From a virus: a DNA stretch of 64,000 nt. The notes beneath the pieces are model-generated. The model was not told the origin of the DNA. It saw nothing but the letters and a program-made list of their open reading frames with translations, and searched no databases. Below are positions 17,010-17,677 of this stretch, in pieces. The translations under genes and the position numbers were made by a program. The stretch's first letter is position 1. Each line of letters starts with the position of its first letter. The stretch lies in the UHGV virus genome UHGV-0036853. One strand, 5' to 3'.

Positions 17010-17677
17010 GGCCGTTGTGGTGGCCGGTACTGAATCTCCGGCATACGGTGCAGCCAATTAGGACTACGGACGATCACCGCTCGCGAAAGGGAAGATTTGC
17101 GGCCGCATTTCCCTAACATCCAAGAAAGCTATCGCATCAGTCTGCGAATCCACCACAACGGAAAGAGCATTCACGTCTCGCGTGCCACCACGAATGGCAA
17201 CTCAGAGAGTCGAACTCTGAAAATGCTCTTACCTGTTGTGTGCTGTGTCACTCCCTCCGCTATTACCTGGCTTTGCCTCGACCTTTTAGGTTGCGTCCGA
17301 TGATAAACAGGGCTGTCGGAAATTTGTCTGTGACACAGCGATAAGAGAACTCGATGCATTTAAGCCAAGCCCCATATGGGAAGTTCTCTTATCTGTTGTG
17401 CGCTCCGTTTCGTGGAGCTAACGGCGGGTGAACAGGCCGCACCAGGTTGGACATATTTCAGCGTTATGCTGTTGCAAGAGAGCCAAATTGTGATGGTCGG
17501 TGCTGAACTCCGACACAGGGTTGTAGCAAGCCCCGCAAAGCGCGCACTACTGTAGTTGCGGCACATCAGCCTGTGCATTCACCACAATGTTGAGAACACT
17601 GGTTGTCACGCTGCAACGCAACATTTATTCATAGATTGGGATATGACCCCGTTACGCCAATGTTCTCAATATTATGT

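Follow-up and report, generated by a model that had tools for sequence, protein, structure and literature searches.

The window analysed here is a 64,000-nt stretch of the viral genome UHGV-0036853, in which four tRNA genes lie on the minus strand and tRNA-Ser(UGA) is separated from a tRNA-Asn, tRNA-Tyr and tRNA-Thr group by a Thr-to-Ser spacer of 668 nt (positions 17010–17677). The original prediction held that this spacer contained no credible open reading frame (ORF) and that it might harbour degenerate tRNAs, a small RNA or processing signals. Among the ORFs that reach into the spacer, the longest encode 93, 72, 68, 62 and 59 aa, several of them overlapping the tRNA genes, and Pfam searches with the six longest returned no match above noise, bearing out the absence of a credible gene. 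Within 17010–17677 no RNA family was matched by ARAGORN or by Rfam, either at the gathering threshold or at E ≤ 10. Had the lack of a match to a structural RNA model been taken as refutation, as was proposed at the outset, the tract would have been wrongly rejected because the family is absent from Rfam, yet a conserved and covarying module is present. Arranged in tandem along the tract, and encoded on the minus strand with the four tRNAs, are three copies of a bipartite RNA module, two of them complete and one reduced to a hairpin.

Comparison of the folding energy of the tract with that of shuffled sequences (20 per strand) gave z = -4.1 for the minus strand and z = -2.0 for the plus strand. 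The strongest hairpins of the whole 64 kb are concentrated at 16843–18472, and several share the base CACAAC...GUUGUG. A covariance-model search of the 64 kb returned three significant matches, all within the tract and all on the minus strand, and one further match (E = 2.4) that represents noise. The minus strand is the relevant one, and both of the features originally noted in the spacer belong to repeated copies of the same module. The 12-bp inverted repeat is exact (12/12, 17340–17351 and 17382–17393, shifted by 1–2 nt from the position first given) and forms the core of a 19-bp stem at 17334–17400, where simple arithmetic places the chance expectation for a perfect 12-mer repeat at such spacing within 668 nt at ~0.002. 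The T-arm-like hairpin, reported as lacking a cloverleaf, is CAGAG-UUCGACU-CUCUG on the minus strand (17219–17203), and ARAGORN and Rfam indeed find nothing around it in the spacer.

Each complete unit consists of a long hairpin (hairpin 1) enclosing a hypervariable insert (VR1), followed by a closing stem, a small hairpin, a second hypervariable insert (VR2) and a further hairpin (E). The features are listed below in the direction of the minus strand.

17850–17924, minus: tRNA-Asn (ARAGORN)
17758–17844, minus: tRNA-Tyr (ARAGORN)
17678–17753, minus: tRNA-Thr (ARAGORN), with U1 starting directly downstream
17487–17679, minus: U1, complete module (covariance-model match 17629–17487, 34 bits, E = 2e-5; inverted repeat)
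17679–17657 and 17602–17580, minus: arms of U1 hairpin 1, enclosing VR1 (17656–17603)
17576–17561, minus: U1 small hairpin, GCACA-GGCUGA-UGUGC
17560–17515, minus: U1 VR2
17514–17496, minus: U1 E hairpin, GUCGG-AGUUCAGCA-CCGAC
17495–17487, minus: U1 closing strand, CAUCACAAU
17401–17486, minus: linker module with small hairpins, including GCUCC-ACGAAAC-GGAGC at 17418–17402 (sequence)
17327–17400, minus: H_B, hairpin-only unit containing the inverted repeat first noted (covariance-model match, 26.2 bits, E = 0.001)
17241–17326, minus: spacer assigned to no family (span-limited minimum-free-energy fold)
17014–17240, minus: U2, complete canonical module (covariance-model match, 58.8 bits, E = 1.1e-10; inverted repeats)
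17240–17221 and 17172–17160, minus: U2 hairpin 1, 5′ strand CACAACAGGUAAGAGCAUUU and 3′ strand
17220–17173, minus: U2 VR1, containing the T-arm-like hairpin (17219–17203)
17159–17151, minus: U2 closing stem, 5′ strand GUUGUGGUG
17147–17132, minus: U2 small hairpin, UCGCA-GACUGA-UGCGA
17131–17045, minus: U2 VR2
17042–17023, minus: U2 E hairpin, GCCGG-AGAUUCAGUA-CCGGC
17022–17014, minus: U2 closing strand, CACCACAAC
16923–17009, minus: tRNA-Ser(UGA) (ARAGORN), directly downstream of U2

The array abuts tRNAs at both ends, with U1 starting within the CCA of tRNA-Thr and only 4 nt (GGCC) lying between the 3′ end of U2 and the 5′ end of tRNA-Ser. H_B has a 19-bp stem (CACAACAGAUAAGAGAACU / AGUUCUCUUAUCGCUGUG) around a 30-nt VR1 of a type also found in phage P7 and in prophages, and its tRNA-like half is collapsed to GCUGUG-U-CACAG. 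The linker module also precedes units in unrelated prophage contigs (IMG/VR loci, e.g. ...GCTCCACGAAACGGAGCCCATAACAGG) and is kept in phage P1, where the differences sit in the loops. The spacer at 17241–17326 is enclosed by a predicted 10-bp long-range stem (GCUGUGUCAC, 17339–17330, with GUGACACAGC, 17253–17244) and, among the aligned relatives, is found nowhere but in the window and the plasmid p009_B, which is 97.9% identical.

The general Rfam tRNA model scores the Asn, Tyr and Thr genes (17678–17924, minus) at 75.5, 41.9 and 69 bits. The tRNA-Ser(UGA) gene falls below the threshold of that model and is best matched by the tRNA-Sec model, at 46.6 bits against a 47-bit cut-off; the record of phage D6 shows the same oddity, the amino acid of this tRNA not being called by tRNAscan-SE.

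Architecture and covariation of the module

Public viral contigs (IMG/VR) were scanned first for the 18-nt 3′ arm and next for the second of the conserved hairpins, and either scan yielded at least 120 loci. The module consensus reads CACAAC-AGGUAAGAGCAUUG-VR1-CAGUGCUCUUUCC-GUUGUGGUG-AAU-GCGCA-GGCUGA-UGCGC-VR2 and continues after VR2 as GCCGG-AGAUCAGCA-CCGGC-CACCACAAC. Half A, the long hairpin around the hypervariable VR1, has 13 bp and reaches ~20 bp if the pairing of the 5′ CACAAC with GUUGUG is included. Half B is a tRNA-shaped domain in which the acceptor-like stem (GUUGUGGUG/CACCACAAC) is stacked directly on the 5-bp E hairpin, and the loop of the E hairpin (UCAGC) pairs with the loop of the small hairpin (GCUGA) in a kissing interaction.

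Covariation was assessed for 36 proposed pairs across 57 distinct scaffolds with the inserts masked. Overall 96.4% of the pairs were formed, compared with 34–57% in slid controls, although for the small and E hairpins this percentage is inflated because parts of three scaffold segments had been fixed by the search patterns and a filter had kept scaffolds in which these two hairpins were mostly paired. Changes on both sides of a pair remain informative under this selection, and 22 pairs changed in this way against 5.4 ± 1.7 in shuffles, a count reached by none of 500 shuffles. Compensatory changes occur in all five helices: hairpin 1, the closing stem GUUGUGGUG/CACCACAAC, the small hairpin, the E hairpin and the GCUGA × UCAGC kissing loop. 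Within the latter, a pair that is A-U in U2 of the window is G-C in the consensus, and another contig carries UCGA × UCGA. The CACAAC/GUUGUG extension was paired in 339 of 342 cells, with all 25 one-sided changes (25/25) producing wobble pairs. Together with this extension, hairpin 1 comprises 19–20 bp with one bulge and one U·U mismatch and is 97% paired across the family. GUUGUG has two mutually exclusive CACAAC partners, and both pairings are supported.

The structure is specific to one strand. Frequent U·G pairs (for example in 37 of 57 scaffolds at one position) would be A·C mismatches on the opposite strand, and among 122 units in 113 loci a same-strand tRNA lies within 600 nt in 36, while an opposite-strand tRNA lies within 900 nt in 2. 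Units end 7–13 nt upstream of a tRNA 5′ end in 11 cases and start 2 nt past a tRNA 3′ end in 14. The RNA structure is conserved, covarying, strand-specific and bipartite, and is co-oriented with and abutting tRNAs. No sigma-70 promoter was predicted on the minus strand between 16500 and 19300, so transcription of the array probably originates from upstream minus-strand genes.

Half B shares the layout of a tRNA in several respects. The acceptor-like stem of 7–9 bp (7 of them well conserved) and the 5-bp E stem follow one another with no spacer, adding up to the 12 bp of a tRNA acceptor/T stack; UGUGGUG/CACCACA directly adjoins GCCGG/CCGGC and both helices covary. A small hairpin occupies the position of the D-arm and VR2 that of the anticodon arm. 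In other respects it departs from a tRNA. Nothing in 17010–17677 is detected by the tRNA models of ARAGORN or Rfam; in place of an anticodon arm with a 7-nt loop stands VR2, which ranges from 12 to 277 nt in 36 unrelated types; and in place of the D-loop/T-loop elbow both units of the window use the GCUGA × UCAGC kissing loop. In nine variants of half B (13 loci) with the same acceptor stem, a UUCGAnU T-loop and a canonical D-arm containing GG stand together in place of the kissing hairpins, so that one construction of the tRNA elbow is exchanged for another as a set. When introns were allowed, ARAGORN called one of seven such variants at its default threshold and four of seven when relaxed, each starting exactly at UGUGGUG, with inconsistent anticodons. 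The tail following CACCACA is NCC in 33 of 106 units (~6% expected), an enrichment that is not general, and NCCA occurs in 11 of 106 units plus 9 more in a shifted register. Half B is thus tRNA-like but not a tRNA.

Variable inserts and distribution

The two inserts are exchanged wholesale between otherwise conserved scaffolds. The 73 canonical units contain 41 unrelated types of VR1 and 36 of VR2, joined in 66 combinations. Each type reappears, little altered, across different phages and is found inside scaffolds only, and VR1 differs even between the window and p009_B. Approximately 15 VR1 variants hold a T-arm beside the stem, and the VR1 of U2 is among them, which explains the T-arm without a cloverleaf. 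That whole inserts are replaced while each type stays conserved suggests that the inserts are more than spacers.

No Rfam family was matched by the inserts of the window and 12 prophage loci, and VR1, VR2 and the loops of the window show no complementarity beyond chance to antisense targets within the 64 kb. One VR2 type (…AGCTAGATGGTGAGGTAATGGCTCACCATGGCGACGA…; IMG/VR loci L047, L053, L058, L118 and L125) resembles 16S rRNA at ~nt 254–282, with up to 26 of 29 positions identical (E = 1.6e-5) and changes that, by eye, preserve the helix; it is either a mimic or captured rDNA. An origin of the inserts in general from captured host rRNA was rejected, since only this one type resembles 16S rRNA and the others gave noise, as was an origin from neighbouring genes, given that the inserts occur inside scaffolds only.

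The module core was found in GTDB species representatives of Kosakonia, Citrobacter, Rahnella, Erwinia, Klebsiella, Pantoea, Serratia, Rouxiella, Aeromonas and others, and in 172 phage records. It is also present in ~12% of complete E. coli genomes (628 of 5426), where it is nearly always chromosomal and never annotated. The elements that carry it include P1, P7 and D6, other ~110-kb phage-plasmids, lambdoid and Stx-type prophages, virulent Ackermannviridae and an apparently N4-like phage. Units lie between a Q-like antiterminator and the lysis genes, often ~10 nt past a terminator, and also in the gap between terL and the portal gene (on the opposite strand), downstream of cI and in tRNA clusters. 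No neighbouring gene, transposase or recombinase is consistently found beside them. The cryptic prophages DLP12 and Qin of K-12 lack a unit, so the module has no K-12 name.

Phage lambda itself (NC_001416), which has no tRNAs, carries a unit at 44787–44900, within record 44787–44946 (L279, 988–1147), between tR′ and S and immediately past the tR′ of 6S RNA. Its closing stem is a compensated pair (GUUGUGCUG/CAGCACAAC) and, with the exception of tR′, no helix of the late leader is longer than its hairpin; no feature is annotated at the site in the lambda GenBank records. A second terminator-like hairpin (record ~45031–45060) lies between this unit and gene S. Full-scoring units were also found in the virulent Klebsiella phage UPM 2146 (Ackermannviridae, 71 bits) and in a 73-kb E. 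coli podophage that is, to judge by its size, apparently N4-like (65 bits). In the 160-kb UPM 2146 the unit is located in ~2.9 kb without annotated genes or tRNAs (L284, 707–3640), a stretch that may be another large non-coding RNA region.

The region of the window is 95–98% identical to ~110-kb E. coli plasmids (p009_B, p09EL50) and to phages CMS-2020a and Cyrano, and the replicon is presumably a phage-plasmid of the SSU5-like kind. Positions 17386–17693 are 92% identical to phage P1, where they occupy the part of the ban operon that separates tRNA-Thr from tciA, and the arrangement of tRNA-Asn, tRNA-Thr, spacer and tRNA-Ser also occurs in P7 and D6. In close relatives the Thr-to-Ser spacer measures 668, 490, 364, 293 or 195 nt, and in Klebsiella relatives the Asn-to-Ser spacer is 146 nt. 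Alignment of the relatives shows blocks that are present or absent as wholes, with break points in the repeated CACAAC... arms.

Processing of phage transcripts and the alternatives

The options originally offered for the tract pointed in the right direction, in that it is a structured non-coding RNA on the tRNA strand and partly tRNA-like, but its modules are not decaying tRNA genes. The notion of processing signals is upheld in so far as the ~20-bp hairpin, which provides about two turns of mostly regular double-stranded RNA as RNase III substrates do, resembles an RNase III site at which cleavage may occur. On balance, the modules probably serve as elements through which host RNases process and stabilise polycistronic phage transcripts, yielding stable tRNA-like RNAs. 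Hairpin 1 would be cut by RNase III; the Q-dependent late transcript of lambda reportedly contains RNase III processing sites (Daniels et al. 1988, cited in PMC7547250), with which the hairpin of the lambda unit may coincide. RNase P, in cleaving next to the tRNA that abuts the module, would define the 3′ end of the latter, and would possibly also cut half B itself at UGUGGUG. The tRNAs would thereby be separated from each other and from the flanking mRNA, leaving nuclease-resistant structured ends alongside the stable tRNA-like RNAs. The competing pairings of GUUGUG would couple the two halves, since it can pair with either flanking CACAAC and would become available to close half B once half A had been cleaved or folded. 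Given that units occur in unrelated phage types with no constant neighbouring gene, only host factors are most likely required.

Several established RNAs resemble parts of this arrangement. The RNase III hairpins of phages (T7 R-sites, the lambda N and late leaders) and the stalks of rRNA operons likewise place a ~20-bp helix with a bulge or mismatch between functional RNAs, and the 16S and 23S stalks, like that of the module, flank an RNA segment. In contrast to the RNase III hairpins, the hairpin of the module is one half of a larger unit, contains a hypervariable insert and competes with the tRNA-like half for pairing. A second group, cut by RNase P and other tRNA-processing enzymes from longer precursors, comprises the C4 antisense RNA of P1 and P7, the P4 RNA CI and the stable T4 RNAs known as species 1 and 2, all of them small phage RNAs with an acceptor/T-like coaxial stack; those of T4 sit within a tRNA cluster, and in C4 and CI the variable loops set specificity. 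The module differs from them in its kissing-loop elbow, the insert of 30–280 nt at the anticodon position and the attached long hairpin, and the Rfam C4 model matched neither the window nor the 12 prophage loci. Bacterial Y RNAs (YrlA), reported from some phages, combine a long stem of distal sequences with a tRNA-like module bearing mimics of the T- and D-arms; they gave no Rfam match at E ≤ 10, and the stem sequence of the module has no known resemblance to the Ro-binding helix. GOLLD and ROOL are also structured phage non-coding RNAs often located beside tRNA genes, whereas the module is much smaller, consists of two conserved halves with variable inserts, occurs in phages of Enterobacterales and has no Rfam match. 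The prophage small RNAs AgvB and AsxR were rejected as candidates, being Hfq small RNAs of 51–60 nt with their own promoters that are in Rfam and gave no match, and the Pas small RNAs were rejected on account of their different context.

Searches with Rfam 15 (window, 12 prophage loci and locus L101, at gathering and permissive thresholds) returned tRNAs and noise only, and GenBank and RefSeq records give either nothing or "hypothetical protein" at the sites of units. No prior description of the module was found in the literature, where coverage of subscription journals was limited and an older description may exist. If the assignment is correct, a widespread and unannotated family of structured RNAs is present within well-studied phages, including lambda, P1 and Stx-type prophages, and would explain many of the ORF-free stretches around phage tRNA genes and the "moron" slots of late leaders. 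How the tRNAs of late operons are excised is not known according to the phage L genome paper (PMC8022706), and the processing model would offer a testable account of the excision of phage tRNAs from long transcripts.

A number of observations weigh against the processing model. We infer the RNase III and RNase P steps for every copy. The correspondence between the hairpin of the lambda unit and the RNase III sites reported by Daniels et al. is presumptive. The units of the window end in ACGG (U2) and AUUU (U1), neither carrying NCCA, and 70% of the sampled units are not beside tRNAs. The inflated pairing of the small and E hairpins belongs here as well. Finally, the wholesale replacement of VR1 and VR2, with each type conserved, is left unexplained by a pure processing role.

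This last point is the basis of a tentative alternative, less probable but compatible with the processing model, to which it would add a function. The hairpin and tRNA-like domain would form a scaffold that displays VR1 and VR2 as functional small RNAs, swapped by recombination in the conserved flanks; decoys, sponges, aptamers, regulators and perhaps anti-defence RNAs are candidates for such cargo. The large number of combinations among the 73 units amounts to free assortment of the 41 VR1 and 36 VR2 types, and the near-unchanged recurrence of scaffold-bound types in different phages, the different VR1 of a 97.9% identical relative, the T-arms beside the stem in ~15 VR1 variants and the mimicry of 16S rRNA by one VR2 type all point the same way. 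On the other side, no target was found, complementarity of the inserts of the window being at chance level within the 64 kb, a single type resembles a host RNA, none matches Rfam, and variable peripheral elements are common in RNAs whose function resides in the core. A synthetic precedent is the tRNA scaffold of Ponchon and Dardel, in which a foreign RNA is placed in the anticodon arm of a tRNA and host enzymes process and protect the product. Half B with VR2 has the same layout, VR2 being the putative cargo, and differs in being natural and in usually having a Watson-Crick kissing loop as its elbow. More speculatively still, the modules of enterobacterial temperate and virulent phages, lambda among them, might constitute a natural 'RNA cassette' system in which an RNase III stalk and a tRNA-shaped scaffold with a kissing-loop elbow express and stabilise, as an arms-race repertoire, dozens of unrelated short RNAs (VR1 and VR2) that phages exchange by recombining within the scaffold. 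Such RNAs could, for instance, act as decoys of host RNA-binding factors or of defences that target RNA, and the system would be a natural counterpart of the engineered scaffold. A covarying kissing loop in place of the tRNA elbow, together with dozens of freely assorting inserts, is unusual and could indicate a new class of functional phage RNAs.

It is improbable that the repeats act at the level of DNA, with CACAAC...GUUGUG serving as recombination joints, as repeats resembling miniature inverted-repeat transposable elements (MITEs) or as single-stranded DNA hairpins that favour the exchange of modules, and with the RNA structure incidental. The range of spacer lengths among relatives (668–146 nt) with deletion ends in the repeated arms, the mosaic assortment of the inserts, and a tRNA module 92% identical between P1-like phages and unrelated ~110-kb phage-plasmids would fit this explanation. 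The strand-asymmetric wobbles, the covarying loop-loop pseudoknot and the co-orientation with tRNAs (36 against 2) are, however, signals at the level of RNA. Unlike those of MITEs, the ends of the units are CACAAC copies in direct orientation, both of which pair with a GUUGUG inside the unit, rather than terminal inverted repeats with target duplications, and no transposase or recombinase is consistently adjacent.

That the units are the wreckage of decayed tRNA genes, with leftover T-arms and no present function, is very unlikely. The T-arm-like hairpins in the VR1 of U2 and in other VR1s, the tRNA shape of half B and the retention of D- and T-loops in some variants would accord with such decay, but 96% pairing and 22 compensated pairs, maintained from Escherichia to Aeromonas, are unlike pseudogenes, and the canonical elbow has been replaced by a covarying kissing loop. 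The family also extends far beyond tRNA clusters, with 70% of sampled units lacking a same-strand tRNA within 600 nt and units occurring in tRNA-free phages such as lambda as well as in the 628 E. coli genomes.

That the plus strand encodes small proteins homologous to Upl and Plp of P1 can be all but discounted: the homologous DNA of P1 does carry annotations for upl (63 aa) and plp (125 aa, 'putative lipoprotein'), U1 being 92% identical to the upl/plp region, and tblastn segments are 74–97% identical in the window, where ORFs of 59 and 44 aa are their counterparts, but the frames contain stops in p009_B, L009 and L018 and are cut to 44 aa in the window, the fragment ends follow the boundaries of the RNA module, the C-terminus of Plp is antisense tRNA-Thr, the spacer ORFs have no Pfam match, upl and plp are unannotated in P7 and D6, and three covariance-model units lie opposite the two genes in P1 (NC_005856, record 69472–70041; L001 2479–3048). 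The upl and plp genes of P1 are probably spurious annotations, which the RNA module would correct.

Flanking features

Two further elements lie downstream of tRNA-Ser on the minus strand.

16843–16920, minus: H_D, a solitary 20-bp hairpin, CACAGCGUUGAGCGGUUUGG / CCAGACCGCUCAACGCUGUG, just downstream of tRNA-Ser (inverted repeat)
16749–16768, minus: strong terminator-like hairpin AAAGGGGCUUCGGCCCCUUU with a U run, closing the non-coding region (terminator scan)

The base of H_D is of the related 'CGUUGAG' type of hairpin 1 and is shared with the hairpin at 18312–18191. In the Klebsiella relatives L010 and L011 the stem of H_D is kept and the loops differ, with a U·G wobble that fits the minus strand only.

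Upstream of tRNA-Asn, ~780 nt (17925–18700, minus) contain short ORFs only and correspond to no annotated gene in p009_B. This stretch holds long hairpins at 18472–18384 (26 bp, 92%), 18312–18191 (a 20-bp stem of the CACAACGUUGAG type) and 18196–18133, and Rfam returned only sub-threshold noise within it (tmRNA_permuted, E = 0.046). At the equivalent place P1 is annotated with a 'dicF-like region', and no DicF match was obtained in the window. A weak DicF-like match (22.7 bits against a 48-bit threshold) in a prophage contig (L101, 2839–2888, plus), ~40 nt downstream of a unit, echoes this P1 annotation near the tRNA/module cluster.

On the plus strand, a 302-aa orphan ORF (15835–16743) adjoins the tRNA/module region in an AT-rich island with a GC content of 26–34%, against ~45–50% around it. 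It carries an RHTIVH (Rx4H-like) motif, and the suggestion of a HEPN protein was rejected after Pfam and PADLOC gave no match. In relatives the slot of this ORF is occupied by a 420-aa hypothetical protein, a DUF6645 protein or a Gp49-family protein.

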